From Octopus vulgaris (taxonomy: Eukaryota), in NCBI GenBank assembly GCA_951406725.2, contig OX597842.1:28086001-28150000 (forward strand): a DNA stretch of 64,000 nucleotides. The letters are read 5' to 3'. The notes under the pieces are model-generated. The model was not told where the DNA came from, did not search any database, and saw only the letters and a program-made list of their open reading frames with translations. A program made the position numbers and the translations under genes. Shown piece by piece: positions 1 to 63,200 of the stretch; the first letter of the stretch is position 1; each line of letters begins with the position of its first letter.

Positions 1-111
1 TCCGCTCGAAACGTCATACCCTCCTTCTTCCATTTTCCTGAGCGCCTAATAATAATAATACTGTAATTGTTCCACGTGTTGTTGTTTTTTCTGTTTTCCC
101 GTTTGGATTAT

Positions 112-115
<4 letters not shown>
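1..115 (+). mobile_element. 3' terminus of a Penelope-like element (cut by window start)
   Basis: Near-identical to the sequence ending the Penelope copies at 27046-27160 and 44610-44722. Confidence 0.75.
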
Positions 116-151
<36 letters not shown>

Positions 152-509
152 CGAACGCACACAAAAACACATATATACACATATATATACACCAACACAC
201 ATACGCATACATAAATGTATACATATGTATATACATATGCATACACATACACACACACGCGCATCTATATATACATAAACACATACATGCATACAAACAT
301 ATACATATATACATACATGCATACTCGAATAATAAATATAAGTATATATGTACGTGCAATTACCTATCATACAGAAGGATACATACATATAAACATATAA
401 ACAGACACATATATACCTATTTACACAAATGTATATATACATACATACATACATACACATACACATAAAACTACATACCTACATATACATAAACACACCG
501 GCGTACATG

Positions 510-550
<41 letters not shown>

Positions 551-802
551 CCACATACATACACATACACATACATACACATACACACACATATACATAC
601 ATATACATGTATGTAAATACATGCACACATACATATATACACACACATATACACATACACACATATATATATATATATATACATATATACACACATGTAT
701 ATATATATATATATATATATAATAAATATTAGGGAATGAATCCAAAATTACAGGGAAAAATCAGATTTAGGGTTAAATCCAAATTTATAGTAAAATATTA
801 TA

Positions 803-1089
803 TAATATAATTCGAGACAAAACCACTATTTTAAAACCAAACAAGGAAAGACTTAATCAATACATAAAATTTTAATATAAATTAAATAAACCGCCATCTT
901 CAGGTGGATTTTCGATCTTCTAATCAGTATCAAAATTTGATACTGATTAGAAGATCGAAAATCCACCTGAAGATTGTCGGTAGCAGACATGAAACATTTG
1001 TAGTGGCGGTTTATTTAATTTATATTAAAATTTTATGTATTGATTAAGTCTTTCCTTGTTTGGTTTTAAAATAGTGGTTTTGTTTCGAA

Positions 1090-1095
<6 letters not shown>
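803..1095. repeat. Long palindrome centred on caaaatttg (931-939), left arm with a 30-bp deletion
   Basis: Arms are reverse complements; left arm lacks ctacaaatgtttcatgtctgctaccgacaa relative to the intact copy at 45439-45771. Confidence 0.9.
963..1006 (+). ncRNA. Type I hammerhead ribozyme motif (family A1)
   Basis: CCAC-CUGAAGA-uUGUC(GGUAGCA)GACAu-GAAA-CAUUUG-UA-GUGG: core boxes, helix I CCAC/GUGG, helix II, short helix III, GUA cleavage triplet. Confidence 0.8.
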
Positions 1096-1152
<57 letters not shown>

Positions 1153-1364
1153 ACACATACACATACCTATACATACACACACATCTACATACACATACAT
1201 ATACATCCGTACGCACACCCTTATACATACATCCACACCGAGGAATACAGGCATATACACACATACACATACACACACACATATATATAAACACATATAC
1301 ATACATATATACATATACATACATCTGCTGCATATATATATACCTATTGACTATATATATATAC

Positions 1365-1434
<70 letters not shown>

Positions 1435-1919
1435 ATGTTTATATGTATGTATCCGTCTGTATAATGGGTAACTGCATGTATATATATTTATTATTTATTA
1501 TTTATTATTTATTATTTGAGTATGATTGTATGTATATATGTATATGTTTGTATGCATGTATGTATTTATGTATATAAGGATGCGCGTGTGTATATATAGA
1601 TGCACGTGTGTGTGTATGTGTATGCATGTGTGTATGTATATGTATGTGTATATATGTATATATATACATGTGTGTATATATAAATGTGTATGCGTATGTA
1701 TATGTGTATGGGTATATATGTGTATATGCATGTATGTATGTGTATGTGTGTATATGTAAGGACTTGTTGGTTTTTTTTATATATGTAGATAGATGTGTGT
1801 GCGTGTGTTTTTGTATGTGCTTGTGTATATATACGTGTATGTATATGTATAGATATATGGATGTATGGGTATGTAGCTATGTATATGACTTCATAATTTG
1901 AAACTGACTTATTGGAAGT

Positions 1920-1962
1920 CCACCTGAAGATTGTCGATCAAGACAAGAAACAATTGTAGTGG
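1920..1962 (+). ncRNA. Type I hammerhead ribozyme motif (family A2)
   Basis: CCAC-CUGAAGA-UUGUC(GAUCAA)GACAA-GAAA-CAAUUG-UA-GUGG; palindromic helix III ACAAUUGU. Confidence 0.85.
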
Positions 1963-2134
1963 CGGTTTTTTTGACTATTTATTAAAATTTTATGTATTGA
2001 TTAAGTCTTTCCTTGTTTGTTTTGCAAAATAGTGGTTTTGTCTCTAATAATATTATATAATATTTTACTATAAAATTGGATTTAATCCTAAATCTGATTT
2101 TTTCCCTGTAAATTTGGATTTATTCCCTAATATT

Positions 2135-2200
<66 letters not shown>

Positions 2201-2204
<4 letters not shown>

Positions 2205-2857
2205 CTGGCGATGTTATTCAAACCAGTATTCAGACACTATGTCCCACCCAAGTAGAGAGTTATAGTTTACAGACATATCTTAGTGAACGAAGTTGATTCG
2301 GGATTTTTGAAGGAATTTTTCCAGAGACTTCTTCAACTTCATGGGGTCTGTTTCTGCTTTAATGTGTTTTGATATCATGTTAAAGAGAGTGGGGCCACTT
2401 GAAGTGAAATGATTGGGCCAAATTGTTATTATGAGATGCAAGTGGGTTTATGTGGTTGGTCGATCGCATGGGGCAGAAGTCTTGGGTGTATCTTAAAGGA
2501 GATGCCAGGATCATTCGGGAACTGCTGCTGGAATATTTTCAACATCATGCAGATGATACAGCGCTCGTGACGACATTGAAGAGAATAAAGCTTGAGCTTT
2601 TCTAGTCGACGACTCCAATGGTCAAGGACTGTCACTTTTGTAATTGACCTTTGAGGTGCTTTAAGTTTCATGGGAATTTGTTCTGTGAGGGGAGACCACA
2701 GTGGACAACTGTATTGAAAGAGGGGTCAGGCAAAAGTGGAGAAGAGAAGGATAATGGTGAGGATATCAGGATATCTCTCGACTGGAAAGTTCTGAGAATC
2801 CAGGAACACATTCTGCTAACCATGTTAACTTTGTTGTGTATATGAGAGGCCCACCTT
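2201..2857 (-). mobile_element. Decayed CR1/L2-type LINE 3' fragment (part of 1.7-kb subunit)
   Basis: Minus strand encodes [44 protein letters not shown], the C-terminus of a CR1/L2-type RT, with frameshifts. Confidence 0.8.
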
Positions 2858-3376
2858 CTATATATATGTATATCTATCTGTCTGTCTGTGTGTCTATCTA
2901 CGTATCTATCTATCTATCAATATATATATATATACACACACAAACATACACATATGTATAGACATACATGTAAATATATGTATATACAATTATTTCATAT
3001 ATATATTGTGTATACATTCTATATATACGTATATATATTGTGTGTATATATATATTATGTTTGTATATGTATATATATATATCTATATATATAGATATAC
3101 ATGTAAATATATGTATACACAAACATATATCTATATATATACATGTATATAAGTATTATATACACTCATCCAACAAATGTATGTCTGTGTCTGCCTTTTC
3201 TTTAATTTGTTAAAATCATTGTCCGATATTTTTTAGTTGTTGCGTTGTTATATCTCTCTATGCTTTATTGCACCCACCTTCTGCCAGTCTGTCTGCCTCT
3301 CTCTCCCTTCCCACCCTCTCACTCTTAGTCTCTCCCTCTCATTTTCATAGTTAAGTCAAGTTGCCGCTTTACTTAG

Positions 3377-3441
3377 GAAGTTAAATATTTAGAGGAGAAA
3401 CAGATGAGATTTCTATTCAATAATGAATATGGTTTAATTTC
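3377..3441 (+). other. Candidate 65-nt exon, copy 1 of 10 ([21 protein letters not shown])
   Basis: Preceded by a pyrimidine tract and ttacttag, followed by gtaag, stop-free in frame 0; no transcript evidence. Confidence 0.35.
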
Positions 3442-3533
3442 GTAAGATTTGTTCAACCACGCCCTAGCTGGAGCAATTTGATCATAAAACATATATATAC
3501 ATATATATATACACACACACATAAATATGCATG

Positions 3534-3597
<64 letters not shown>

Positions 3598-3900
3598 GCA
3601 CACATATTTGTGCGTATATATATATCTGTGTGTGTGTATATATAATTATTTCATATATATATTGTGTGTATATATATATATATTATGTACGTATATGTAT
3701 ATATATATAGAGAGAGAGATATATAGGTATATATAGATTCTATGCATGTATATATATATAAGTCTATAGGCATATGTATATGCAGTAAATGTACGCATAT
3801 GTATATATATATGTATATGCGTTTATATATATATATCTATATGTATATATATATATGTATATGCGTTTATATATATATATATATCTATATGTATATATAT

Positions 3901-4560
3901 ACACCTGGCGATTTTATTCAAATCAGTATTCGGACACTATGTCCCACCCAAGTAGAGAGTTATAATTTACAGAGACATATCTTAGTGAACAAAGTTGATT
4001 CGGGATTTTTTGAAGGAATTTTTCCAGAGACTTCTTAAACTTTATGGGGTGTGTTTCTGCTTTAATGTGTTTTGATATTATGTTAAAGAGAGTGGGACCA
4101 CTTGATGTGAAATAATTGTGCCAAATTGTTATTATGAGATGCAAGTGGGATTTATGTGGTTGGTGGATCACATGGGCCAGAAGTCTTGGGTGTATCTTAA
4201 AGGAGATGACAGCATAATTCGGGAAATGCTGCTGGAATATTTTCAACATCATGCAGATGATACAGCGCTCGTGACGACATTGAAGAGAATAAAGCTTGAG
4301 CTTTTCTAGTCGACGTCTCCAATGGTCAAGGACTGTCATGTTTGTAATTGACCTTTGAGGTGCTTCAAGTTTCATGGGAATATGTTCTGTGAGTGGAGAC
4401 CACAGTGGACAACTGTATTAAAAGAGGGGTCAGGCAAAAGTGGAGAAGAGAAGAATAATGGTTAGGATATCAGGATATCTCTCGACTGGAAAGTTCTGAG
4501 AATTCTGGAACACATTCTGCTGACCACGTTAACTTTGCAGTGTATATGAGTGGCCCACCT
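3901..4560 (-). mobile_element. Decayed CR1/L2-type LINE 3' fragment (subunit copy)
   Basis: ORF 3923..4375; paralog of 2201-2857. Confidence 0.8.
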
Positions 4561-4579
4561 TCTATATATATGTATATCT

Positions 4580-4800
<221 letters not shown>

Positions 4801-4861
4801 CACACATACATACACACATATATAGACATACATGTAAATATATGTATATACAATTATTTCA

Positions 4862-7800
4862 TAGGCAAGGAACACAGGTACAACTCACAGGCAAGGAACA
4901 CAGGTGCAAGACTTTCTGGGCAGGGAACACTGACGGGGTCGGGGGCGTGGGTATACTTCTTGTGGAGAAATGGGTTGATAAGTTAATCGAGGTAGTCAGA
5001 GTAAGTGACAGAGTAATTAAAATTAGATTGGTCCTTCACCATAGGACAGCTACCATCATCTCGGCATATGCCCCTCAACCAGGGCTACCGGAAGGACAAA
5101 ATGACCAATTCTATGACACCCTATTGCGGACTACCTCGTTGACAAATGACAGTGACATTCTCTTCGTGTCAGGTGATTTCAATGGACATGTTGGACGGCA
5201 TGTCGGGGGCTTCCATGGCGTCCATGGAGGCTACGGTTTTGGCTCTTGTAATGAGGAGGGAACCAGGCTGCTGGAGTTCTGCGATGCAAATGACCTTATG
5301 GTCTGCAATACCAAATTCAGGAAACCCACCTCTCACCTAGTCACCTACCGTTCTGGCAGACACACCAGCCAGATTGACTACAACCTTGCCAGAAAAATGG
5401 AAAGAGGGCTGATTATAAATGCCAAAACCTTTCCAGGCGAAGAATGTACTCCTCAACATAGACTAGTAGTTAGCGACTTCAGGATCAGAGCTAAATGGTT
5501 GCCCAGAAGAAGACCAGCTTGGAGGAGAAGGGTCTGGAAGCTTAAAGATCCTGCAAATGGACAGAGATTTAGAGACATACTACTCGAAGCCTTTGACGAA
5601 ATAGAAGGGCATATAGCTTCACTTAATGTGGAAGACAACTGGAGATTTCTACGGGACAATCTGCTGACAGCCACTGACCAGATCTGTGGATGGAGCAAAG
5701 TACCATCTTGACCCAGAGTAACATGGTGGTGGAACACTGTGATTGACAGGGCTATTAGACAAAAGAGACAGGCTTGGAAGGACTGGAAGTACGGTGGTAG
5801 CAGGGAATTGTATCAGACAGCCAGAAGGGAAGCTAGGAGACAGGTTTATTTAGCCAGAGGGGAAATGAATAAGAAAAAATTTGCCAATGTTCTGAGCCGT
5901 GAGGATGAAAGACTTGAGGTATTTCGTGTTGCAAGACAGAGTGTGAGAGAGAATCGTGATGTGGTAGGAGAGAAATGTGTTCGCATGGATGATGGTTCAC
6001 TTGCGCTAAATGGGGATGCAAAGAGAGAGGTTTGGAGATGCCACTATGAAAGGTTGGTGAATAAAGAAAATGAATGGGATAAAGAGAGTCTGCCGAATGT
6101 TGACCCAACAGAGGGACCAGCTATCCGAGTTGATAGTTCGCAGTAGCTAAGGCAATTAGAAGCATGAAGACAGGGAAAGCCACAGGCCCATCAGGAATTA
6201 CTGCAGAGATGCTCAAAATATCTGGCAGTGTCGGCTATAACCTAGTCACCCGTATAGTCAACCAGGTGATACACGAAGGAGTCATACCCAATGATTGGTG
6301 TAGCAGCATACTAGTCAACTGCTACAAAGGTAAAGGTGATGCCCTAGATACAAATAATTACAGAGGTATCAAGCTGTTGGATCAGGTAATGAAGGTTACA
6401 GAGAGGGTCATAGCCCAACTAATTAGAGAGAGTTAGTTTAGATGAGATGCAGTTTGGGTTCGTGCCAGGGAAAAGCACCACTGATGCTATATTCCTGGTA
6501 AGGCAGCTGCAGGAGAAATACCTAGCCAAAGATAAGCCCCTGTACCTGGCTTTCGTTGACATGGAGAAAGCCTTTGATAGGGTCCCCCGATCCCTCATCT
6601 GGTGGTCAATGAGGAAACTAGGGATAGATGAATGGCTGGTGAGGGCTGTGCAAGCCATGTACAGAGATGCCGTAAGTAAGGTTAGGGTTGGCAACATGTA
6701 CACAGAAGAATTCAAAGTAGAAGTTGGGGTCCACCAGGGTTCAGTACTCAGCCCCCTCCTATTTATCATAGTCCTCCAGGCAATTGTGGAGGAATTCAAG
6801 ACAGGATGCCCCTGGGAGCTCCTCTATGCTGACGACCGTGCTCTAATTGCTGAGTCACTATCAGAACTGGAGGAGAAGTTCCAGGTGTGGAAGGAGGGTT
6901 TAGAACCGAGGGGCCTTAGAGTCAACCTAGCTAAAACCAAAGTACTAATAAGTAGAAAGGTAGACAATCCACAAATGTCTTCAGGAAAATAGCCCTGCTC
7001 GATATGTAGAAAAGGTGTAGGTAGAAACTCTATAAGATATACCCAGTGTAAGCTATGGACACATAAGAGGTGCAGCAATGTCAAAGGTAGGCTAACTGGG
7101 AAGATAGTTTTTGTATGTGGCAGATGCTCGGGAGCATTGACCTCCAAAAATCTGCAGAAAACAACTTCCGTCACTTTCCAGGGGGAAAAACTAAAAGTAG
7201 TTGATAGCTTCCGTTATCTAGGTGACCAAGTCAGCAGCGGGGGTGGGTGCGCTGAGAGTGTAACTGCTAGAATAAGAATAGCCTGGGCAAAGTTTAGGGA
7301 GCTCTTACCTCTGCTGGTGACTAAAGGCCCCTCGCTCAGAGTAAAAGGCAGACTGTATGATGCATGTGTACGAACTGCCATGCTACATGGCAGTGAAACA
7401 TGGGCCGTGACTGTTGAGGACATGCGTAAGCTCATGAGGAATGAAGCCAGTATGCTCCGATGGATGTGTAATGTCAGTGTACTTAGTCAACAGAGCGTTA
7501 GTTCCTTGAGAGAAATGTTGTACCTAAGAAGCATCAGTTGTGGTGTGCAAGAGAGACGATTGCGCTGGTATGGTCATGTGGCGAGAATGGATGAAGATAG
7601 GTGTGTGAGAAAGTGCCAATCCCTAGCAGTTGAGGGAACCCGTGGAAGAGGTAGACCCAGGAAAACCTGGGACGAGGTGGTGAAGCACGACCTTCGAACG
7701 TTAGGTCTCACCATGGAAATGACTAGAGACCGAGACCTATGGAAGTATGCTGTGCGTGAGAAGACCCGGCAAGACTAGTAAAGCCATAAACCGTGGCCCC

Positions 7801-19874: not shown

Positions 19875-20492
19875 ACATATATGCATATACACATATACAT
19901 ACACATACACACACATATCCATATACACATGTACATATGCACCCATTTACATACATCTACGTACACACCAATACCCATACTCATACATACACTCATATCC
20001 CTACACACTTATATCTAAAAATAAATATAAATATAAATACAAATACAAATATAAAGGGGGATATACACCCCCATACATACACGCTCATATATCTATACAT
20101 ACCCACACTTTGACCTCGACCCAACAGGCCAGCTCTCCCAAGGGAGCTAGCTTAGCCAGCCTAAAGACACCATTTATTGCTCCTTTCCCTTCCTTTCTAT
20201 CTTTCTTCACACTGATACGAACACAAACACTCACAGACGCACACACACACACACGCACACTCATTCACATACACAAACGCACGTGTTATATTCATACATA
20301 CATAAGTGTACCGACTTTCACATAAACGTACACATAACTATGTACACACAAAAAAACCCACATACGCACGCACATACCTACATATACATACACATATATA
20401 CTTACACCAGTCATATACAAACCTACATACACATACATACATATACACGTATATATACTCACACATATATACACATACACCTATATACACAC

Positions 20493-20531
<39 letters not shown>

Positions 20532-20993
20532 CACATACATATACATACACACACATCTACATACACATACATATACATCCGTACGCACACCCTATTACAT
20601 ACATACATCCACACAGAGGTATACAGGCATCTACACACATACACATACATACACATATATATACATATACCCCTGCGCGCCTACACGGACCCCTTGTACC
20701 TTGGATACCAATTCCCGGATTTTTGCACCTACGGATTACTTTTACCAGTCGTCTGGACCTACGGATTACCTGCTACCTTTTTTCCGGAGTACTGCTACTA
20801 TCGTGATTGAAAATCATTATTTAATCTGTCCGTTGACTCTCTTAACTCTTTCCTAATTTTTTTCTACTTTTTTCTACTTTGTTCTATTGTTTTCAAACTA
20901 TCTTCCCCTTTTGCTTTTTTTATCTTCCTTTTGTCTCTCCTTTTTTCTGTATCGCCACCACCCACATTTACCTGTTTGCCACCACTTCTCATC

Positions 20994-23837
20994 ATGCCTG
21001 ACTTGCACTCGTTCGTCCAACACCTTCAATCCCTCCTTAGCCGCTTTCTCGCGTTCTACCCCCCACAATGTTCCGCACCTGCTAAAAAACTTTCCCCGCT
21101 TGCTTTTTAAGAAAACTCGCCATTCCAGCCATCTCTCCTTTCTCAGCCGTTGCCTCCGCCATCATGTCACACCCCGCGGTTTCCTCTTGAAGTTCCACGC
21201 TACCCCCTATTCCTCCCCCTTCATCGAACCCACCCTCGCTCGTACCTCCCGCTCCCTCCTCCGCGCCACCATCCGCTCCACCCGCCCTCTCCTTGACTCC
21301 CTCGACCATCAACTTCCCCAGGCCTACCTCCTTCTCTCCGCCCTCTGCCCTCCACTCTTCACCCAACCTATCCTCCGCTTCATTCTTAATCTCAACCACC
21401 AACTCCACAACTTCCTCACACACAAAAAACAAAAAACTCCACCACCTCCTCAACCCCTCACCCCCTTCCCCATCCTCCCCCACTGCTCCCCCAAACCCCT
21501 CTTTCGTACTTACCCCTCCCCCTCCCACGGACCCACACCGTGACCTTCCTACGCCTAACCCATCTTCACCCAACCACCCCTACCCTCCCCTTCACACCCC
21601 TGCACCCCCTCTGCCTGACCCTAGTCCTCCCACCACCCCGCTTCCTCGCGCTGTTGTCACTATACCCCCAACCTCCCCCTCTCCGCCGCCGAGCGTTCTC
21701 TCCTCAGTAAGGGTCTCCGCTTCACGCCACTCACGCGCCACTGTGATGAGTTCGAGACTCGGGCTGACGTCAACCTGTTCCTGCGCCGCCTCAAACTTTG
21801 CGCATACTACCACGCGTCCCCGCAGCGTCACAACAATCAGGATTGCCTTGTGGAGCTGGGGCGTCGTCCATCCCACTGGACGCCGCCCCCAGGCCTATTC
21901 AGTAGCCTAGATTCGTTTGTACATGACTGCAACGCGTTGGTCCACCGGTTCAACTTTGAACCACGTCCCCGCCGAACCAACCTCACTCGAGCCGAATCCA
22001 TTGCCCTTCGCCACCTCCGCCGCCGTGATGACATCGTCATCAAGCCGGCGGACAAAGGCGGGGAAGTGGTAGTGTGGCGCGCGGACCTATACAGGGAGGA
22101 AGCGCTCAACCAGCTTCAAAATCCCCTCTTCTATCACCTCCTCCCCTCCGATCCCACCTCCTCCTACCAACAGCGAGTTTCCTCCACCATCCGCGACCTC
22201 ATCTTCTCTTCTGCTCTCCCCTCCACCGCCACCAACCTCATCGTCCGCACACCCCGCACCTCCACCATCTACTTCCTTCCCAAGATCCATAAACCCTCTA
22301 ATCCGGGCCGTCCCATAGTCTCTGCCTGTAATTGCCCCACTGAACTCATTTCCCTATACCTCGACCGCATCCTGTCCCCCCTAGTCGCAGCCCTCCCATC
22401 CCACATACACGATACTAACCACGCCCTCCGTCTCTCCAATTCCTTTTCCTTCCCTTCCAACCCCTCACACCTCCTCTTCACATTAGATGTAAAATCCCTG
22501 TACACTGTGATTCCCCACAATGACGGTCTCCTAGCCCTCCAACACTTCCTCGACCGTCGTCCCGACCCCACCCCTAGCACCCCCACCCTCCTCCGCTTGG
22601 CCGAGCTCGTCCTCACCCTCAACTGTTTCACGTTCGCCGGGGAAACGTACCAACAGGTGTCCGGGGTCGCGATGGGAACTAGGATGGGCCCCAATTTCGC
22701 CAATCTCTTTCTTGGCTACATTGAGGCCCAAGTATTCTCCCAGTTCTCCGGGCCGACCCCCGAACTATACGGTCGCTATATAGACGACTGCATAGGTGCC
22801 ACCTCTCTTTCCCGCGAACTCCTCTGCCAATTCATCTCTTTCCTTTCCAACTTTCACCCCTCCCTTCAATTCACATCCACCATCTCCAACACCTCTGTCA
22901 ACTTCCTCGACATCTCTCTCCGAATCGACCACCCCTCCAAGTCTCTCACCACCTCCGCCTTCTTTAAACCTACGGATTCCCACCTCTATCTCAACTTCTC
23001 CTCCTCCCACCCCTTCCACACCAAACGAGCTATCCCCTACTCCCAGTTCCTCCGCCTCCGACGTTTGTGCAGCCGCGACCAGGATTTCGAGACCCAATCT
23101 CAATACCTGGCCCGCCTGTTCAGACTCCGAGGTTACCCACCCATACTCATCTCTAATGCTCTCACCCGCGCCCGACGCATCGACCGCACCACCGCCCTGT
23201 CTCCTTCCCCCCATCCACCCCCCAACCGCACCCCTTCCCCCTCCTTTTCCACCCCTCTACCCTACCCCTTCGTCGCAAGATACTACGTGCCTTCCGTCGC
23301 CTCCAGCTTCATCCCACAACCCGTCCCATTTTCCCTAACCCACCCCTGTCCTCCTTCAAACGAGCCCGTAATCTACGGGACCTCCTGGTCCACAGCACCC
23401 TCTCTCCTTCCCCCTCAGCCCCACACGGATCATTCCCTTGCTCTAGATCCCGCTGCAACACTTGCCCCTTCATCACCAACACCACTGCTGTCACCGGCTC
23501 CAACCGGCGCACTGTACGTATTAGGCACTCTTTTACGTGCACCTCGTCTGGCCTCATTTACTGCATTAAATGCAACCTATGCGGGATGCTGTATGTAGGA
23601 CAGACGGGACGCCGGTTGTCCGATCGATTCACAGAACATTTGAGGGACGTTCGCCTACACTCCCTTTCTCCTATCGCACGCCACTTCCGCTCGGCCTGCC
23701 ATTCCCTAGATGACATCTCAGTGTTTGGTCTCGCCCCCAACAATGGCCGTCCTCTTTCTAGGCTCCACTTGGAGCAACGCTACATCTTCACCCTACAAAC
23801 CACTACCCCACACGGACTTAACACACCCTCCTCCTAG
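20994..23837 (+). pseudogene. Frameshifted Penelope-like RT / GIY-YIG endonuclease ORF
   Basis: IKPADKGG..VV, YFLPKIHK..PGRPIVS, LDVKSLYT, GVAMG..MGP.FANLFL, RYIDD, VNFLD, KPTD; C-terminal CSRSRCNTC and LIYCIKC..CGMLYVGQTGRRLSDRFTEH..PHGLN; several frameshifts. Confidence 0.92.
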
Positions 23838-27029: not shown

Positions 27030-27064
27030 GTTTCCGACGAAGAGCTCCGCTCGAAACGTCATAC
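27030..27064 (+). ncRNA. Degenerate minimal hammerhead-like motif at Penelope 3' end
   Basis: GUUU-CCGACGA-A-GAGC(UCC)GCUC-GAAA-CG-UC-AUAC; U4>C, extra A, one helix I mismatch. Confidence 0.5.
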
Positions 27065-27546
27065 CCTCCTTCTTCCATTTTCCTGAGCGCCTAATAATAA
27101 TAATACTGTAATTGTTCCACGTGTTGTTGTTTTTTCTGTTTTCCCGTTTGGATTAACCTATATATATATATATATATACATATATACAGACGAACGCACA
27201 CAAAAACAGATATATACACATATATATACACCAACACACATACGCATACATAAATGTATACATATGTATATACATATGCATACACATACACACACACGCG
27301 CATCTATATATACATAAACACATACATGCATACAAACATATACATATATACATACATGCATACTCGAATAATAAATATAAGTATATATATACGTGCAATT
27401 ACCTATCATACAGAAGGATACATACATATAAACATATAAACAGACACATATATACCTATTTACACAAATGTATATATACATACATACATACATACATACA
27501 CATAAAACTACATACCTACATATACATAAACACACCGGCGTACATG

Positions 27547-27603
<57 letters not shown>

Positions 27604-27952
27604 ACATACATACACATACACATACATACACATACACACACATATACATACATATACATGTATGTAAATACATGCACACATACATATATACACACACAAA
27701 TACACATACACATATATATATATATATATATACATATATACACACATGTATATATAGATATATATATATATATATATATAATAAATATTAGGGAATGAAT
27801 CCAAAATTACAGGGAAAAATCAGATTTAGGGTTAAATCCAAATTTATAGTAAAATATTATATAATATAATTCGAGACAAAACCACTATTTTAAAACCAAA
27901 CAAGGAAAGACTTAATCAATACATAAAATTTTAATATAAATTAAATAAACCG

Positions 27953-27995
27953 CCACTACAATTGTTTCTTGTCTTGATCGACAATCTTCAGGTGG
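27953..27995 (-). ncRNA. Type I hammerhead ribozyme motif (family A2), inverted copy
   Basis: Reverse complement of 1920-1962. Confidence 0.85.
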
Positions 27996-28202
27996 ACTTC
28001 CAACAAGTCAGTTTCAAATTATGAAGTCATATACATAGCTACATACCCATACATCCATATATCTATACATATACATACACGTATATATACACAAGCACTT
28101 ACAAAAACACACGCACACACATCTATCTACATATATAAAAAAACCCAACAAGTCCATACATGTACACACATACACATACATACATGCATATACACATATA
28201 TA

Positions 28203-28264
<62 letters not shown>

Positions 28265-28329
28265 TCAATAGGTATATATATATGCAGCAGATGTATGTAT
28301 ATGTATATATGTATGTATATGTGTTTATA

Positions 28330-28384
<55 letters not shown>

Positions 28385-28388
<4 letters not shown>

Positions 28389-37349: not shown

Positions 37350-37964
37350 TGCATATACACATATACATACACATACACACACATATCCATATACACATGT
37401 ACATATGCACCCATTTACATACATCTACGTACACACCAATACCCATACTCATACATACACTCATATCCCTACACACTTATATCTAAAAATAAATATAAAT
37501 ATAAATACAAATACAAATATAAAGGGGGATATACACCCCCATACATACACGCTCATATATCTATACATACCCACACTTTGACCTCGACCCAACAGGCCAG
37601 CTCTCCCAAGGGAGCTAGCTTAGCCAGCCTAAAGACACCATTTATTTCTCCTTTCCCTTCCTTTCTATCTTTCTTCACACTGATACGAACACAAACACTC
37701 ACAGACGCACACACACACACACACACGCACACTCATTCACATACACAAACGCACGTGTTATATTCATACATACATAAGTGTACCGACTTTCACATAAACG
37801 TACACATAACTATGTACACACAAAAAAACCCACATACGCACGCACATACCTACATATACATACACATATATACTTACACCAGTCATATACAAACCTACAT
37901 ACACATACATACATATACACGTATATATACTCACACATATATACACATACACCTATATACACAC

Positions 37965-38005
<41 letters not shown>

Positions 38006-38467
38006 CACATACATGTACATACACACACATCTACATACACATACATATACATCCGTACGCACACCCTATTACATACATACATCCACACAGAGGTATACAG
38101 GCATCTACACACATACACATTTATACACATATATATACATATACCCCTGCGCGCCTACACGGACCCCTTGTACCTTGGATACCAATTCCCGGATTTTTGC
38201 ACCTACGGATTACTTTTACCAGTCGTCTGGACCTACGGATTACCTGCTACCTTTTTTCCGGAGTACTGCGACTATCGTGATTGAAAATCATTATTTAATC
38301 TGTCCGTTGACTCTCTTAACTCTTTCCTAATTTTTTTCTACTTTTTTCTACTTTGTTCTATTGTTTTCAAACTGTCTTCCCCTTTTGCTTTTTTTATCTT
38401 CCTTTTGTCTCTCCTTTTTTCTGTATCGCCACCACCCACATTTACCTGTTTGCCACCACTTCTCATC

Positions 38468-41316
38468 ATGCCTGACTTGCACTCGTTCGTCCAATACCTT
38501 CAATCCCTCCTTAGCCGCTTTCTCGCGTTCTACCCCCCACAATGTTCCGCACCTGCTAAAAAACTTTCCCGCTTGCTTTTTAAGAAAACTCGCCATTCCA
38601 GCCATCTCTCCTTTCTCAGCCGTTGCCTCCGCCATCATGTCACACCCCGCGGTTTCCTCTTGAAGTTCCACGCTACCCCCTATTCCTCCGCCTTCATCGA
38701 ACCCACCCTCGCTCGTACCTCCCGCTCCCTCCTCCGCGCCACCATCCGCTCCACCCGCCCTCTCCTTGACTCCCTCGACCATCAACTTTCCCAGGCCTAC
38801 CTCCTTCTCTCCGCCCTCTGCCCTCCACTCTTCACCCAACCTATCCTCCGCTTCATTCTTAATCTCAACCACCAACTCCACAACTTCCTCACACACACAA
38901 AAAACAAAAAACTCCACCACCTCCTCAACCCCTCACCCCCTTCCCGATCCTCCCCCACTGCTCCCCCAAACCCCTCCTTCGTACCTACCCCCACCCCCTC
39001 CCACAGACCCACACTGTGACCTTCCTACGCCTAACCCATCTTCACCCAACCACCCCTACCCTCCCCTTCACACCCCTGCACCCCCTCTGCCTGACCCTAG
39101 TCCTCCCACCACCCTGCTTCCTCGCGCTGTTGTCACTATACCCCACAACCTCCCCCTCTCCGCCGCCGAGAGTTCTCTCCTCAGGAAGGGTCTCCGCTTC
39201 ACGCCACTCACGCGCCACTGTGATGAGTTCGAGACTCGGGCTGACGTCAACCTCTTCCTGCGCCGCCTCAAACTTTGCGCATACTACCACGCGTCCCCGT
39301 AGCGTCACAACAATCTGGATTGCCTTGTGGAGCTGGGGCGTCGTCCATCCCACTGGACGCCGCCCCCAGGCCTATTCAGTAGCCTAGATTCGTTTGTACA
39401 TGACTGCAACGCGTTGGTCCACCGGTTCAACTTTGAACCACGTCCCCGCCGAACCAACCTCACTCGGGCCGAATCCATTGCCCTTCGCCACCTCCGCCGC
39501 CGTGATGACATCGTCATCAAGCCGGCGGACAAGAGCGGGGCAGTGGTAGTGTGGCGCGCGGACCTATACAGGGAGGAAGCGCTCAATCAGCTTCAAAATC
39601 CCCTCTTCTATCACCTCCTCCCCTCCGATCCCACCTCCTCCTACCAACAGCGAGTTTCCTCCACCATCCGCGACCTCATCTTCTCCTCTGCTCTCCCCCC
39701 CACCGCCACCAACCTCATCGTCCGCAAACCCCGCACCTCCACCATCTACTTCCTTCCCAAGATCCATAAACCCTCTAATCCGGGCCGTCCCATAGTCTCT
39801 GCCTGTAATTGCCCCACTGAACTCATTTCCCTATACCTCGACCACATCCTGTCCCCCCTAGTCGCAGCCCGCCCATCCCACATACACGACACCAACCACG
39901 CCCTCCGTCTCTTCAATTCCTTTTCCTTCCCTTCCAGCCCCTCACACCTCCTCTTCACATTAGATGTAAAATCCCTGTACACTGTGATTCCCCACAATGA
40001 CGGTCTCCTAGCCCTCCAACACTTCCTCGACCGTCGTCCCGACCCCACCCCTAGCACCCCCACCCTCCTCCGCTTGGCCGAGCTCGTCCTCACCCTCAAC
40101 TGTTTCACGTTCGCCGGGGAAACGTACCAACAGGTGTCCGGGGTCGCGATGGGAACTAGGATGGGCCCCAATTTCGCCAATCTCTTTCTTGGCTACATTG
40201 AGGCCCAAGTATTCTCCCAGTTCTCCGGGCCGACCCCCGAACTATACGGTCGCTATATAGACGACTGCATAGGTGCCACCTCCCTTTCCCGCGAACTCCT
40301 CTGCCAATTCATCTCTTTCCTTTCCAACTTTAACCCCTCCCTTCAATTCACATCCACCATCTCCAACACCTCTGTCAACTTCCTCGACAGCTCTCTCCGA
40401 ATCGACCACCCCTCCAAGTCTCTCACCACCTCCGCCTTCTTTAAACCTACGGATTCCCACCTCTATCTCAACCTCTCCTCCTCCCACCCCTTCCACACAA
40501 AACGAGCCATCCCCTACTCCCAGTTCCTCCGCCTCCGACGTTTGTGCAGCCGCGACCAGGATTTCGAGACCCAATCTCAATACCTGGCCCGCCTATTCAG
40601 ACTCCGAGGTTACCCACCCATACTCATCTCTAATGCTCTCACCCGCGCCCGACGCATCGACCGCACCACCGCCCTGTCTCCTTCCCCCATCCAACCCCCA
40701 ACCGCACCCCTTCCCCCTCCTCTTCCACCCCTCTACCCTACCCCTTCGTCGCAAGATACTACGTGCCTTCCGTCGCCTCCAGCTTGATCCCACAACCCGC
40801 CCCATTTTCCCTAACCCACCCCTGTCCTCCTTCAAACGAGCCCGTAATCTACGGGACCTCCTGGTCCACAGCACCCTCTCTCCTTCCCCCTCAGCCCCAC
40901 ACGGATCATTCCCTTGCTCTAGATCCCGCTGCAACACTTGCCCCTTCATCACCAACACCACTGCTGTCACCGGCTCCAACCGGCGCACTGTACGTATTAG
41001 GCACTCTTTTACGTGCACCTCGTCTGGCCTCATTTACTGCATTAAATGCAACCTATGCGGGATGCTGTATGTAGGACAGACGGGACGCCGGTTGTCCGAT
41101 CGATTCACAGAACATTTGAGGGACGTTCGCCTACACTCCCTTTCTCCTATCGCACGCCACTTCCGCTGGGCCTACCATTCCCTAGATGACATCTCAGTGT
41201 TTGGTCTCGCCCCCCACAATGGCCGTCCTCTTTCTAGGCTCCACTTGGAGCAACGCTACAACTTCACCCTACAAACCACTACCCCACACGGACTTAACAC
41301 AGCCCCCTCCTCCTAG
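38468..41316 (+). pseudogene. Disrupted Penelope-like RT / GIY-YIG ORF
   Basis: ORF pieces 38405..39019, 38766..39302 (premature TAG), 39327..40787 (RT, RYIDD), 40273..41316 (GIY-YIG at end). Confidence 0.92.
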
Positions 41317-44593: not shown

Positions 44594-44628
44594 GTTTCCG
44601 ACGAAGAGCTCCGCTCGAAACGTCATAC
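44594..44628 (+). ncRNA. Degenerate minimal hammerhead-like motif at Penelope 3' end
   Basis: Identical to 27030-27064. Confidence 0.5.
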
Positions 44629-44717
44629 CCTCCTTCTTCCATTTTCCTGAGCGCCTAATAATAATAATACTGTAATTGTTCCACGTGTTGTTGTTTTTTC
44701 TGTTTTCCCGTTTGGAT

Positions 44718-44769
<52 letters not shown>

Positions 44770-45131
44770 TACAGACGAACGCACACAAAAACAGATATAT
44801 ACACATATATATACACCAACACACATACGCATACATAAATGTATACATATGTATATATATATGCATACACATACACACACACGCGCAACTATATATACAT
44901 AAACACATACATGCATACAAACATATACATATATACATACATGCATACTCGAATAATAAATATAAGTATATATATACGTGCAATTACCTATCATACAGAA
45001 GGATACATACATATAAACATATAAACAGACACATATATACCTATTTACACAAATGTATATATACATACATACATACATACACATACACATAAAACTACAT
45101 ACCTACATATACATAAACACACCGGCGTACA

Positions 45132-45176
<45 letters not shown>

Positions 45177-45316
45177 CCACATACATACACATACACATAC
45201 ATACACACACACACATATACATACATATACATGTATGTAAATACATGCACACATACATATATACACACACATATACACATACACATATATATATATATAT
45301 ATACATATATACACAC

Positions 45317-45364
<48 letters not shown>

Positions 45365-45533
45365 AATATTAGGGAATGAATCCAAAATTACAGGGAAAAA
45401 TCAGATTTAGGGTTAAATCCAAATTTATAGTAAAATATTATATAATATAATTCGAGACAAAACCACTATTTTAAAACCAAACAAGGAAAGACTTAATCAA
45501 TACATAAAATTTTAATATAAATTAAATAAACCG

Positions 45534-45577
45534 CCACTACAAATGTTTCATGTCTGCTACCGACAATCTTCAGGTGG
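45534..45577 (-). ncRNA. Type I hammerhead ribozyme motif (family A1), left arm of palindrome
   Basis: Reverse complement of 45633-45676. Confidence 0.8.
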
Positions 45578-45632
45578 ATTTTCGATCTTCTAATCAGTAT
45601 CAAAATTTGATACTGATTAGAAGATCGAAAAT

Positions 45633-45676
45633 CCACCTGAAGATTGTCGGTAGCAGACATGAAACATTTGTAGTGG
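45633..45676 (+). ncRNA. Type I hammerhead ribozyme motif (family A1), right arm of palindrome
   Basis: Identical to 963-1006. Confidence 0.8.
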
Positions 45677-45760
45677 CGGTTTATTTAATTTATATTAAAA
45701 TTTTATGTATTGATTAAGTCTTTCCTTGTTTGGTTTTAAAATAGTGGTTTTGTCTCGAAT

Positions 45761-45808
<48 letters not shown>

Positions 45809-46006
45809 ACACATACACATACCTATACATACACACACATCTACATACACATACATATACATCCGTACGCACACCCTTATACATACATCCACACCGAGGT
45901 ATACAGGCATATACACACATACACATACACACACACATAATTATAAACACATATACATACATATATACATATACATACATCTGCTGCATATATATATACC
46001 TATTGA

Positions 46007-46063
<57 letters not shown>

Positions 46064-46566
46064 GTATATATGTGTATGTTTATATGTATGTATCCGTCTG
46101 TATAATGGGTAACTGCATGTATATATATTTATTATTTATTATTTATTATTTATTATTTGAGTATGCATGTATGTATATATGTATATGTTTGTATGCATGT
46201 ATGTATTTATGTATATAAGGATGCGCGTGTGTATATATAGATGCACGTGTGTGTGTATGTGTATGCATGTGTGTATGTATATGTATATGTATATATGTAT
46301 ATATATACATGTGTGTATATATAAATGTGTATGCGTATGTATGTGTATATGTGTATGGGTATATATGTGTATATGCATGTATGTATGTGTATGTGTGTAC
46401 ATGTATGGACTTGTTGGTTTTTTTTATATATGTAGATAGATGTGTGTGCGTGTGTTTTTGTATGTGCTTGTGTATATATACGTGTATGTATATGTATAGA
46501 TATATGGATGTATGGGTATGTAGCTATGTATATGACTTCATAATTTGAAACTGACTTATTGGAAGT

Positions 46567-46609
46567 CCACCTGAAGATTGTCGATCAAGACAAGAAACAA
46601 CTGTAGTGG
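46567..46609 (+). ncRNA. Type I hammerhead ribozyme motif (family A2)
   Basis: As 1920-1962 but helix III reads ACAACUGU. Confidence 0.75.
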
Positions 46610-46828
46610 CGGTTTTTTTGACTATTTATTAAAATTTTATGTATTGATTAAGTCTTTCCTTGTTTGTTTTGCAAAATAGTGGTTTTGTCTCTAATAATAT
46701 TATATAATATTTTACTATAAAATTGGATTTAATCCTAAATCTGATTTTTTCCCTGTAAATTTGGATTTATTCCCTAATAGTTATTATATATATATAATGT
46801 ATGTATATGTATATATGTATGTATATGT

Positions 46829-46866
<38 letters not shown>

Positions 46867-46870
<4 letters not shown>

Positions 46871-47523
46871 CTGGCGATGTTATTCAAACCAGTATTCGGA
46901 CACTATGTCCCACCCAAGTAGAGAGTTATAGTTTACAGACATATCTTAGTGAACGAAGTTGATTCGGGATTTTTTGAAGGAATTTTTCCAGAGACTTCTT
47001 CAACTTTATGGGGTCTGTTTCTGCTTTAATGTGTTTTGATATCATGTTAAAGAGAGTGGGGCCACTTGAAGTGAAATGATTGTGCCAAATTGTTATTATG
47101 AGATGCAAGTGGGATTTATGTGGTTGGTCGATCGCATGGGGCAGAAGTCTTGGGTGTATCTTAAAGGAGATGCCAGCATCATTCCGGAACTGCTGCTGGA
47201 ATATTTTCAACATCATGCAGATGATACAGCGCTCGTGACGACATTGAAGAGAATAAAGCTTGAGCTTTTCTAGTCGACGACTCCAATGGTCAAGGACTGT
47301 CACTTTTGTAATTGACCTTTGAGGTGCTTCAAGTTTCATGGGAATTTGTTCTGTGAGGGGAGACCACAGTGGACAACTGTATTGAAAGAGGGGTCAGGCA
47401 AAAGTGGAGAAGAGAAGGATAATGGTGAGGATATCAGGATATCTCTCGACTGGAAAGTTCTGAGAATCCAGGAACACATTCTGCTAACCATGTTAACTTT
47501 GTTGTGTATATGAGCGGCCCACC
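46867..47523 (-). mobile_element. Decayed CR1/L2-type LINE 3' fragment (subunit copy)
   Basis: ORF 46926..47339. Confidence 0.8.
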
Positions 47524-48044
47524 TTCTATATATATGTATATCTATCTGTCTGTCTGCGTGTCTATTTACGTATCTATCTGTCTATCAATATATATATATA
47601 TACACACACAAACATACACATATGTATAGACATACATGTAAATATATGTATATACAATTATTTCATATATATATTGTGTATACATTCTATATATACGTAT
47701 ATATATTGTGTGTATATATATATTTTGTTTGTATATGTATATATATATATCTATATATATAGATATACATGTAAATATATGTATACACAAACATATATAT
47801 ATATATATACATGTATATAAGTATTATATACACTCATCCAACAAATGTATGTCTGTGTCTGCCTTTTCTTTAATTTGTTAAAATCATTGTCCGATATTTT
47901 TTAGTTGTTGCGTTGTTATATCTCTCTATGCTTTATTGCACCCACCTTCTGCCAGTCTGTCTGCCTCTCTCTCCCTTCCCACCCTCTCACTCTCAGTCTC
48001 TCCCTCTCATTTTCATAGATAAGTCAAGTTGCCGCTTTACTTAG

Positions 48045-48109
48045 GAAGTTAAATATTTAGAGGAGAAACAGATGAGATTTCTATTCAATAATGAATATGG
48101 TTTAATTTC
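48045..48109 (+). other. Candidate 65-nt exon copy
   Basis: Same as 3377-3441. Confidence 0.35.
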
Positions 48110-48201
48110 GTAAGATTTGTTCAACCACGCCCTAGCTGGAGCATTTTGATCATAAAACATATATATACATATATATATACACACACACATAAATATGCAT
48201 G

Positions 48202-48244
<43 letters not shown>

Positions 48245-48551
48245 GCACACATATTTGTGCGTATATATATATCTGTGTGTGTGTGTATATATAATTATTT
48301 CATATATATATTGTGTGTATATATATATATATTATGTACGTATATGTATATATATATAGAGAGAGATAGATATATAGGTATATATAGATTCTATGCATGT
48401 CTATATATATAAGTCTATAGGCATATGTATATGCAGTAAATGTACGCATATGTATATATATATGTATATGCGTTTATATATATATATCTATATGTATATA
48501 TATATATGTATATGCGTTTATATATATATATATATCTATATGTATATATAT

Positions 48552-49210
48552 ACACCTGGCGATTTTATTCAAATCAGTATTCGGACACTATGTCCCACCC
48601 AAGTAGAGAGTTATAATTTACAGAGACATATCTTAGTGAACAAAGTTGATTCGGGATTTTTTGAAGGAATTTTTCCAGAGACTTCTTAAACTTTATGGGG
48701 TGTGTTTCTGCTTTAATGTGTTTTGATATTATGTTAAAGAGAGTGGGACCACTTGATGTGAAATAATTGTGCCAAATTGTTATTATGAGATGCAAGTGGG
48801 ATTTATGTGTTTGGTGGATCACATGGGCCAGAAATCTTGGGTGTATCTTAAAGGAGATGACAGCATCATTCGGGAAATGCTGCTGGAATATTTTCAACAT
48901 CATGCAGATGATACAGCGCTCGTGACGACATTGAAGAGAATAAAGCTTGAGCTTTTCTAGTCGACGTCTCCAATGGTCAAGGGCTGTCATGTTTGTAATT
49001 GACCTTTGAGGTGCTTCAAGTTTCATGGGAATATGTTCTGTGAGTGGAGACCACAGTGGACAACTGTATTAAAAGAGGGGTCAGGCAAAAGTGGAGAAGA
49101 GAAGAATAATGGTGAGGATATCAGGATATCTCTCGACTGGAAAGTTCTGAGAATTCTGGAACACATTCTGCTGACCACGTTAACTTTGCAGTGTATATGA
49201 GTGGCCCACC
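48552..49210 (-). mobile_element. Decayed CR1/L2-type LINE 3' fragment (subunit copy)
   Basis: ORF 48574..49026. Confidence 0.8.
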
Positions 49211-49257
49211 TTCTATATATATGTATATCTATCTGTCTGTCTGTGTGTCTATCTACG

Positions 49258-49288
<31 letters not shown>

Positions 49289-49289
49289 A

Positions 49290-49448
<159 letters not shown>

Positions 49449-49500
49449 ATACACACATATATAGACATACATGTAAATATATGTATATACAATTATTTCA

Positions 49501-49828
49501 TAGGCAAGGAACACAGGTACAACTCACAGGCAAGGAACACAGGTGCAAGATTTTCTGGGCAGGGAACACTGACGGGGTCGGGGGCGTGGGTATACTTCTT
49601 GTGGAGAAATGGGTTGATAAGTTAATCGAGGTAGTCAGAGTAAGTGACAGAGTAATTAAAATTAGATTGGTCCTTCACCATAGGACAGCTACCATCATCT
49701 CGGCATATGCCCCTCAACCAGGGCTACCGGAAGGACAAAATGACCAATTCTATGACACCCTATTGCGGACTACCTCGTTGACAAATGACAGTGACATTCT
49801 CTTCGTGTCAGGTGATTTCAATGGACAT
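49501..49828 (+). mobile_element. RTE AP-endonuclease stub left by deletion
   Basis: Matches 4862-5189 and stops at GDFNGH. Confidence 0.9.
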
Positions 49829-60222: not shown

Positions 60223-63200
60223 TCATCATCATCATCATCATTCATTTAGCGTCCGTTTTCCATGCTAGCATGGGTTGGACGGTTCAACTGGGGTCTGGGG
60301 AGCCCGAAGGCTGCACCAGGCCAGTCAGATCTGGCAGTGTTTCTACAGCTGGATGCCCTTCCTAACGCCAACCACTCCGAGAGTGTAGTGGGTGATTTTA
60401 TGTGCCACCGACACAGGTGCCAGACAAGGCTGGCGAACGGCCACGCTCGGATGGTGTTTTTTATGTGCCACCGACACAGGTGCCAGACGAGGCTGGCAGA
60501 CGGCCACGCTTGGATGGTGTTTTTATGTGCCACAGACACAGGTGCCAGATGAGGCTGGCGAACGGCCACGATCGGATGGTGTTTGTTACGTGACCGCAGC
60601 ACGAAGGCCAGTCGATGTGGTACTGGCTACGGCCACGTTCGGATGGTTTTCTTGTGTGCCACCGGCACTGGTACCACAAAGATACAAATTCCATTGATGT
60701 TCATCTATTTTGATTTGTTTTGATTGATTTTCACTTGCCTCAACAGGTCTTCACAAGTGTCACAAGAAGGAAGGTATGCACAGGTGGACTGACTACATCC
60801 CAGGTAAGGGCCACGGGTTATGGCCTGACTAGTCTTGCCGGGTCTTCGGATGGTGTTTTTATGTGCCACCGACACAGGTGCCAGATGAGGCTGGCGAAAC
60901 GGCCACGATCGGATGGTGTTTGTTACTTGCACCACAGCACGGAGGCCAGTCGATGCGGTACTGGCTACGGCCACGTTCGGATGGTTTTCTTGAGTGCCAC
61001 AAAGATACAAATTCCATTGATGTTCATCTATTTTGATTTGTTTTGATTTTCACTTGCCTCAAAAGGTCTTCACAAGTGTCACAAGAAGGAAGGAAGGTAT
61101 GCACAGGTGGACTGACTATGTCCCAGGTAGGGGCCACGGGTTATGGCCTGACTAGTCTTGCCGGGTCTTCGGATGGTGTTTTTATGTGCCACCGACACAG
61201 GTGCCAGATGAGGCTGGCAAACGGCCACGATCGGATGGTGTTTGTTACTTGCCCATAGCACGGAGGCCAGTCGATGCGGTACTGGCTACCGCCACATTTG
61301 GATGGTTTTCTTGTGTGCCACCGGCACCACAAAGATACAAATTCCATTGATGTTCATCTATTTTGATTTGTTTTGATTTGATTTTCACTTGCCTCAACAG
61401 GTCTTCACAAGTGTCACAAGGAGGAAGGAAGGAAGGTATGCACAGGTGGACTGACTACGTCCCAGGTAGGGGCCACGGGTTATGGCCTGACTAGTCTTGC
61501 CGGGTCTTCGGATGGTGTTTTTATGTGTCACCGACACAGGTGCCAGATGAGGCTAGGCTTGCCGGGTCTTCAGATGGTGTTTTTATGTGCCACCGACACA
61601 GGTGCCAGATGAGGCTGGCGAACGGCCACGATCGGATGGTGTTTGTTATGTGCCCACAGCACGGAGGCCAGTCGATGCGGTACTGGCTACGGCCACGTTC
61701 GGATGGTTTTCCTGAGTGCCACCGTACTGGTATCACAAAGATACAAATTCCATTGATGTTCATCTATTTTGATTTGTTTTGATTTTCACTTGCCTCAAAA
61801 GGTCTTCACAAGTGTCACAAGAAGGAAGGTATGCACAGGTGGACTGACTACGTCCCAGGTAGGGGCCACAGGTTATGGCCTGACTAGTCTTGCCGGGTCT
61901 TCGGATGGTGTTTTTATGTGCCAACGACACAGGTGCCAGATGAGGCTGGCGAACGGCCACGATCGGATGGTGTTTGTTATATGCCCACAGCAGGGAGGCC
62001 AGTCGATGCGGTAGTGGCTACCGCCACGTTCGGATGGTTTTCTTGTGTGCCACCGGCACTGGTACCACAAAGATACAAGTTCCATTGATGTTCATCTATT
62101 TTGATTTGTTTTGATTTGATTTGATTTTCACTTGCCTCAACAGGTCTTCACAAGTGTCACAAGAAGGAAGGTATGCACAGGTGGACTGACTACGTCCCAG
62201 GTAGGGGCCACGGGTTATGGCCTGACTAGTCTTGCCGGGTCTTCTCACGCACAGCATACTTCCATAGGTCTCGGTCTCTAGTCATTTCCTTAGTGAGACC
62301 TAAAGTTCGAAGGTCGTGCTTCACAACCTCGTCCCAGGTTTTCCTGGGTCTACCTCTTCCACAGGTTCCCTCAACTGCTAGGGTGTAGCACTTTTGCACA
62401 CAACTATCTTCAGCCATTCTCGTCACATGACCATACCAGCGAAGCCGTCTCTCTTGCACACCACAACTGACGCTTCTTAGGTTCAACTTTTCTCTCAAGG
62501 TACTTACACTCTGACGATTATGAACACTGACATTACACATCCATCGGAGCATACTGGCTTCATTTCTTGCGAGCTTACGCATATCCTCAGCAGTCACGGC
62601 CCATGTTTCACTACCATGTAGCATGGCTGTACGTACACATGCATCATACAGTCTGCCTTTTACTCTGAGTGAGAGGCCTTTTGTCACCAGCAGGGGTAAG
62701 AGCTCTCTAAACTTTGCCCAGGCTATTCTTACTCTAGCAGTTACACTTTCAGCACACCCACCCCCACTACTGACTTGGTCACCTAGGTAGCGGAAGCTAT
62801 CAACTACTTCTAGTTTGTCTCCCTGGAACGTGGTAGAAGTTGGTCTCTGCACATTTCCAGTGTTTATTGCTCCTGAGCATCTGCCACAGACAAAAACTAT
62901 TTTCCTAGTTAGCCTTCCTTTGACATTGCTGCACCTCTTATGTGTTCATAGCTTACACTTGGTGCACCTTATAGAGTTTCTACCTACACCTTTTTTACAG
63001 ATCGAGCAGGGCCATCTACCTGAAGTCGTTTGTGATTGGTCTACCTTCCTACTTATTAGGACTTTGGTTTTGGCTAGGTTGATTCTAAGGCCCTTCGATT
63101 CTAATCCTTGTTTCCACACCTGAAACTTCTCCTCCAGTTCTGATAGTGACTCAGCAATTAGAGCAAGGTCATCAGCATAGAGGAGCTCCCAGGGGCATCC

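Follow-up and report, generated by a model that had tools for sequence, protein, structure and literature searches.

Hammerhead-bearing repeat copies in an octopus genomic segment as likely truncated tail ends of a Hydra-like Penelope element

Main finding

Three short copies of one repeat family, two of them carrying a complete minimal hammerhead motif on the plus strand (HH1 and HH2), are likely 5'-truncated tail ends of a Hydra-like Penelope element that reached the locus in two separate insertions, a reading to which we assign a probability of roughly 0.8. From their sequences, the young head-to-head pair at 722-1093 and the sister-subfamily copy at 1889-2137 are likely to be separate arrivals. 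The pairing of HH1 and HH2 is probably accidental, the motifs being of a known kind and the stretch an ordinary remnant, and the hammerhead at this locus is likely a passenger. We claim likeness to the Hydra clade and not membership, because the parent ORF was not found in our pattern scans of metagenome, viral and prokaryote collections (0 loci, and 0 with the tail word); the label, which we consider likely, is drawn from architecture. Coordinates refer to the window, the whole 64-kb stretch of DNA that was analysed.

Hammerhead motifs

The motif scan confirmed two minimal type I hammerheads on the plus strand that had been proposed in a preliminary description, HH1 at 963-1006 (core CUGAAGA from 967) and HH2 at 1920-1962 (core from 1924), together with the cut-to-cut distances of 956 nt for this pair and 933 nt for the duplicate pair at 45633/46567 (cores at 45637 and 46571, plus strand). 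Two further motifs on the minus strand, with cores at 45573 and 27991, were missing from that inventory, as was the palindrome described below. Helix I of HH1 is formed by CCAC (963-966) and GUGG (1003-1006), which fits the requirement of 4-5 bp; its loop II reads GGUAGCA and is followed by GAAA and the helix III segment ACAUUUGU, with a cut predicted after A1002. HH2 has GAUCAA as loop II and ACAAUUGU as helix III segment, with a cut predicted after A1958. The core positions C3-U-G-A-N-G-A9, G12-A-A-A15.1 and U16.1-H17 are present in six window motifs. With a relaxed descriptor the window holds 6 motifs, as against a single one in total across 30 locally resampled windows (29/30 had none), and this number exceeds chance expectation.

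The helix II pairing that was said to be kept in both motifs holds for the inner 4 bp, which are common to HH1 and HH2 and are retained (UGUC/GACA) with three loop sequences, and does not extend to the fifth position, which is U.U in HH1 and U-A in HH2. The G10.1-C11.1 pair of the Cervera 2014 consensus is accordingly absent in both. A defect of HH1 at 10.1/11.1 was considered and dropped, since U.U is the commonest state in the Hydra-clade rows of the PMC8557442 supplement (14 of 26, counted by hand). Comparison with the hammerhead models of Rfam, suggested earlier as a check, gave no hammerhead match among the best 150 of 450 matches in one search, nor in two other searches that yielded one unrelated match each; the best matches, miRNA models lying on the palindrome and on microsatellites, were below the gathering score and were rejected as shape matches. 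Isolated motifs fold no better than shuffled sequences (z 0.04-0.75 in 6/6 family stretches), which is unsurprising because helix III needs a partner.

Copies of the repeat family

Each motif sits in a unit of about 250 bp, in which it is preceded by some 30 nt and followed by a tail that measures at most 175 nt and ends in (TA)n. The window contains seven copies, and the 3' ends of all of them run into (TA)n, a tract interrupted after a few units at 46785. The features are as follows.

722-934, minus strand: left arm of the head-to-head insertion, long 3' end into (TA)n, 30-nt deletion with the break at 895/896
936-1093, plus strand: HH1-type copy forming the right arm, its short 3' end running into (TA)n; the centre base is 935
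963-1006, plus strand: HH1 minimal type I hammerhead, predicted cut after 1002
1094-1888, no strand: spacer, made up of pieces of (TA)n and of degenerate CA/TG microsatellites (TRF)
1889-2137, plus strand: HH2-type copy whose long 3' end runs into (TA)n; the 5' limit is approximate
1920-1962, plus strand: HH2 minimal type I hammerhead, predicted cut after 1958
27781-28026, minus strand: recombinant copy, HH2-type head and HH1-type tail, ends approximate
45362-45604, minus strand: left arm of the duplicate palindrome, intact and carrying a complete hammerhead (core 45573)
45606-45771, plus strand: right arm of the duplicate palindrome, containing HH1 (45633-45676) and forming a perfect inverted repeat with 45439-45604
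46536-46785, plus strand: HH2-type copy in the duplicate, with ACAACUGU as helix III segment, ends approximate

The HH1 copy (936-1093) and the HH2 copy (1889-2137) agree at 135/156 positions (about 87%), their counterparts in the duplicate (45606-45771 and 46536-46785) at 143/164, and the duplicate copies among themselves at 160/161 and 262/264. Judged by these identities, the HH1 and HH2 copies belong to different subfamilies of one repeat family. The distance from the motif to the 3' end is 160 and 238 nt in the copies here.

The head-to-head palindrome

The right-hand half of a head-to-head palindrome holds HH1; the centre is base 935 here and base 45605 in the duplicate, where the arms are perfect over 166 bp (45439-45771). 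A pairwise comparison of palindrome arms gives 169/169 identical positions, and in the copy at 722 the right arm matches the left at 128 of the 129 positions they share. The left arm carries the long end; the right arm terminates at a TA-like stretch inside the unit, about 78 nt before that point. Exactly 30 nt are deleted from the left arm of the 722 copy, comprising helix II, GAAA, helix III and the cut site, and the two palindrome copies differ by this deletion and one substitution. The word at the centre is AAATTT, and the HH2 copy reads AATTTGA at the matching place. One contig of run X9 crosses the centre and is one base shorter there; the junction of the 30-nt deletion was covered in 0/4 runs and 868-899 was without cover in 4/4, which proves nothing. 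Two degenerate, microsatellite-rich repeats, inverted and about 73% identical, flank the palindrome (120-410 on the plus and 1430-1830 on the minus strand).

Spacer and segmental duplications

TRF covers 555 of the 795 nt of the spacer (70%), and pieces of it recur without a hammerhead, 1093-1287 matching 20465-20663 and 37937-38137 at 87-88%. The region 1-5189 is duplicated at 44610-49828 (about 5.2 kb, 96% identical), and the second hammerhead pair lies in this duplicate. The recurrence at 45633/46567 is therefore not independent: the motifs reported there do exist, as a segmental duplicate in which the copy at 46567 carries ACAACUGU instead of ACAAUUGU. A third block, 27046-28387, holds a minus-strand copy in which an HH2 head is joined to an HH1-type tail, with reversed spacer after it, and all three occurrences in the window sit in duplicated blocks. 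The 1958-to-1003 junction, put forward previously as diagnostic of a circular RNA, is already found in genomic DNA at about 27956 as an exact match of 128 nt (47 + 81 nt), so that a read across it could equally stem from genomic DNA and would be no proof of a circle. For the junction of the 45-46 kb pair there was no exact DNA match.

The window as a whole is animal DNA rich in repeats, among them microsatellites, pieces of LINEs and two Penelope-type elements that are broken, and is a mosaic of recent segmental duplications, 95-97% identical (1-5189/44610-49828, 9396-16856/49827-57305, 18880-28024/36277-45610 and 12597-18977/30060-36436). A minus-strand fragment at 2186-2860 with a LINE-like reading frame of about 160 amino acids is repeated in about nine further copies (e.g. 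3886-4560, 12597, 28380 and 46860), each placed after a (TA)n tract; the one copy scanned had no Pfam match. Tandem repeats of about 340 bp lie beside an RTE-like LINE end at 60447-62244.

Evidence from public contigs

Comparison of 1862-2138 with public contigs returned 15,437 contigs from run X2 and 2,178 from run X5. Summed contig depth, which serves as a contrast only and gives no copy number, was 1.5e6 (X2) and 6e5 (X5) over the HH2 motif against 115 and 130 at 1872-1881; at the junction of spacer and HH2 it was about 1e2 against 1e6 over the motif. The head of HH1 likewise reached 1.3e4 against 108 at 908-923 in the left arm (run X9). From the contrast of about 10^4-fold at HH2 we take it that the repeat unit is abundant and that its junction with the spacer is not. 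The depth drops steeply 10-40 nt upstream of the motif, and loose ends of X13 contigs reach 71 and 141 nt 5' of it.

The same contigs document variation within the family. The substitution A1952G accounts for 49%, 46% and 47% of the depth in X2, X5 and X13 (3/4 runs), and loop II varies among the loose ends of contigs while the UGUC/GACA stem stays unchanged. Position 10.1/11.1 also reads A-U, in one contig each of X10 (depth 3.6, possibly an error) and X5. An inverted join is present in a contig of X13 (joint 1888/2008), X20 has loose ends at 921 and 937, and the short end is seen in X2, where 41 contigs stop at 2059 into TA.

An excess of A>G was observed in X13 (16 A>G and 7 T>C among 28 listed places of 1862-2138) and at 2/2 places in X20 (868-1092), two runs that are RNA only by guess and were compared without matched DNA of the same individuals. 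DNA runs were mostly without such an excess, X10 showed it at 1/2 places and X15 not at all. The A>G/T>C excess fits ADAR editing of double-stranded family RNA from both strands and is not tied to this locus. A contig of X15 that matches 1862-1940 exactly was rejected as evidence of expression, since run X15 lacks an A>G excess and may derive from DNA.

Dimer pairing and predicted folding

Helix III of HH2 is palindromic for dimer formation at 8/8 pairs, which bears out the suggestion that the minimal helix III is suited to dimer pairing as in Penelope-like ends; HH1 and the copy at 46567 reach 6/8 each. The A1952G variant keeps the 8-bp dimer helix through G-U pairing (-6.1/-5.8 vs -6.4 kcal/mol). 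A mixed dimer of HH1 and HH2 would have 7/8 pairs and -3.2 kcal/mol, half the stability of the HH2 homodimer. With the upstream antisense arm in the RNA, the predicted cost of folding HH1 is 26.2 kcal/mol for the 722 copy and 85.0 for the 45 kb copy, and without that arm 1.6-4.5 kcal/mol. A read-through RNA is thus predicted to form long double-stranded RNA that locks HH1, and release of a 956-nt RNA from a read-through transcript, as the preliminary description envisaged, would be blocked at these costs (26-85 kcal/mol). In an RNA starting at 936 both hammerhead folds together would cost 7.5 kcal/mol, and according to these models the release would be physically possible if transcription began inside the hairpin.

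The neighbouring Penelope elements

Two broken Penelope-like copies of the Neptune type lie on the plus strand at 21625-23837 and 38348-41316. They contain the RT, a DKG-type motif, a CSRSRCNTC linker and GIY-YIG, and are followed by about 3 kb of CA-rich sequence; in both, the RT and the endonuclease are in different frames. The RT resembles the Neptune rows in the supplement of Craig et al. 2021 (PMC8557442). A BLAST comparison of the hammerhead repeat family with both copies and their flanks gave a best E value of 0.39. The neighbouring RT, once suggested as the agent mobilising the pair, was therefore rejected as a partner of the repeat, being frameshifted in both copies, of a different clade and without common sequence. 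A separate, degenerate hammerhead-like motif occurs at the 3' end of the neighbouring Penelope element (44597-44626, 27034-27063 and 1-16, plus strand), with a CCGACGA core, a 4-bp helix II and a poor helix I, and is missed by the descriptor used here.

Origin of the copies

Published Penelope biology suggests how such copies may arise, through target-primed reverse transcription. The GIY-YIG endonuclease would nick (TA)n, and the RT would copy the element RNA from its 3' end and stop early, leaving the hammerhead and the tail. To account for the perfect palindrome, we infer that the cDNA end snapped back at the self-complementary AAATTT and copied itself, and that the second arm may have joined the target at the internal TA-like stretch, which would give the short end; this snap-back model is built on one event seen twice and on the X9 contig with a centre shorter by one base. 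A duplication would then have carried the block to 45 kb, and exchange between inverted copies likely produced the recombinant copy seen at 27.8-28.0 kb. Acting as a dimer, the motif of the parent element would cleave a tandem precursor RNA.

Because no parent ORF was found in the scans, the repeat could also be non-autonomous in its own right, a short element of about 250 bp (SINE-like or a solo pLTR) copied by a Hydra-type enzyme, with the pair as chance neighbours. The steep fall in depth just upstream of the motif would agree with this, as would the start of both subfamilies within about 30 nt of helix I in the window and the lack of an ORF adjoining any of its seven copies. Such a fall would, however, also be produced by the point at which the reference copy is truncated and by edge effects in short contigs; the X13 loose ends extend further 5', and PLEs are typically strongly truncated at the 5' end (Craig et al. 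2021, PMC8557442), so that we regard a non-autonomous element as unlikely. An assembly artefact, in which fold-back reads or mis-joins in the duplicated block produced the palindrome and the recombinant copy, might be suspected from the perfection of the 166-bp arms, from the absence of a listed contig spanning the whole stretch and from the uncovered deletion junction in 4/4 runs; given that the palindrome copies differ from each other by the deletion and the substitution, that the X9 contig crosses the centre with one base fewer, and that inverted joins occur in X13 and X20, we hold it to be extremely improbable.

The preliminary description had interpreted HH1 and HH2 as a retrozyme-like cassette, a working pair that excises a 956-nt (or 933-nt) RNA, which is circularised and copied by a Penelope RT. 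The two motifs do share strand and helix I, which makes the mixed dimer possible; the folding cost for an RNA beginning at 936 is modest at the 7.5 kcal/mol given above, animal retrozyme units reach 972 bp (10.64898/2026.07.22.740005), and family RNA appears to exist, as the A>G excess in X13 and X20 indicates. Against it stand terminal repeats that are 87% identical and of two subfamilies, with no tandem array; a low-copy spacer junction; 3/3 occurrences of the unit in the window that fall in duplicated blocks; the antisense arm upstream of HH1 and the weak mixed dimer; and a neighbouring RT that is broken and unrelated. We consider such a pair very unlikely, and we attach equally little weight to an accidental variant, in which independently inserted ends of sister subfamilies would cut as a mixed dimer and free a 956-nt microsatellite-rich circle from transcripts begun inside the hairpin, the 30-nt deletion in the antisense arm partly freeing HH1. 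Were that variant true, two unrelated insertions could be enough to create a retrozyme whose cargo is host microsatellite DNA. Read as truncated Penelope-type tail ends, the copies matter little, adding one more such end to a genome rich in them. The exact palindrome with one short and one long end would nevertheless be a clean test case for inverted PLE insertion, a process still to be explained according to Craig et al. 2021 (PMC8557442).

Comparison with known systems

In the octopus hammerhead ribozyme literature, considered by title and by the start of the abstract, no listed paper deals with this repeat family, and the portion of the O. vulgaris repeat paper PMC13282606 considered here names no such family; it may already be catalogued, for instance in Repbase or Dfam. 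Of nine short family words sought in the supplement of PMC8557442, seven were absent and two occurred once each in unrelated sequence, in a text whose line breaks could mask matches.

Animal retrozymes are described as a single unit repeated in tandem, every repeat bearing a motif (Cervera and de la Pena 2020, PMC7229834; Li, Clavereau and Pollet 2026, 10.64898/2026.07.22.740005), and their monomers span 51-972 bp (10.64898/2026.07.22.740005), typically about 300 (PMC7229834). The locus resembles animal non-LTR retrozymes in its two same-strand type I motifs less than 1 kb apart and in its Penelope ancestry, and 956/933 nt lies within the published monomer range. It differs from them in that only about 160 nt are repeated, at 135/156 identity, around an unrelated microsatellite spacer of 795 nt, in the antisense arm upstream, and in that dispersal of the unit was not seen in the window or in contig depth.

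The minimal motifs at PLE ends offer a closer parallel. According to Cervera and De la Pena 2014 (PMC4209133) they are mostly dispersed singles, sometimes opposite-strand pairs, and have low activity even as dimers. Like them, the motifs here have a short helix I and an unstable palindromic helix III, occur mostly as dispersed singles belonging to truncated elements, and include pairs on opposite strands at distances of 100-700 bp. Unlike them, they have no G10.1-C11.1, and helix II is shorter than the 7-8 bp of Schistosoma.

Frangieh et al. 2024 (PMC11167929) reported that the RT starts at two sites behind the tail, that cleavage takes place only in the presence of protein, and that insertion in vitro needs no cleavage. 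Among PLEs, inverted 5'-truncated copies and a one-sided tail have been described, and Hydra-clade PLEs target (TA)n (Craig et al. 2021, PMC8557442); by hand count in that source, most Hydra-clade rows place the motif at a distance of about 90-210 nt from the 3' end. The copies here depart from the Hydra clade in a long-end extension of about 78 nt versus the published 30-40 nt, in palindrome arms that coincide exactly at one 5' break, and in that no ORF was seen; the Hydra-1_Obim hammerhead (PMC8557442) also differs in sequence from the motifs here. They share with the clade the (TA)n target, a minimal type I motif near the 3' end, two alternative 3' ends and an inverted 5'-truncated copy, as well as the core CUGANGA-U ... 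U-GAA with a 4-bp helix II, a 4-bp helix I and a palindromic helix III.
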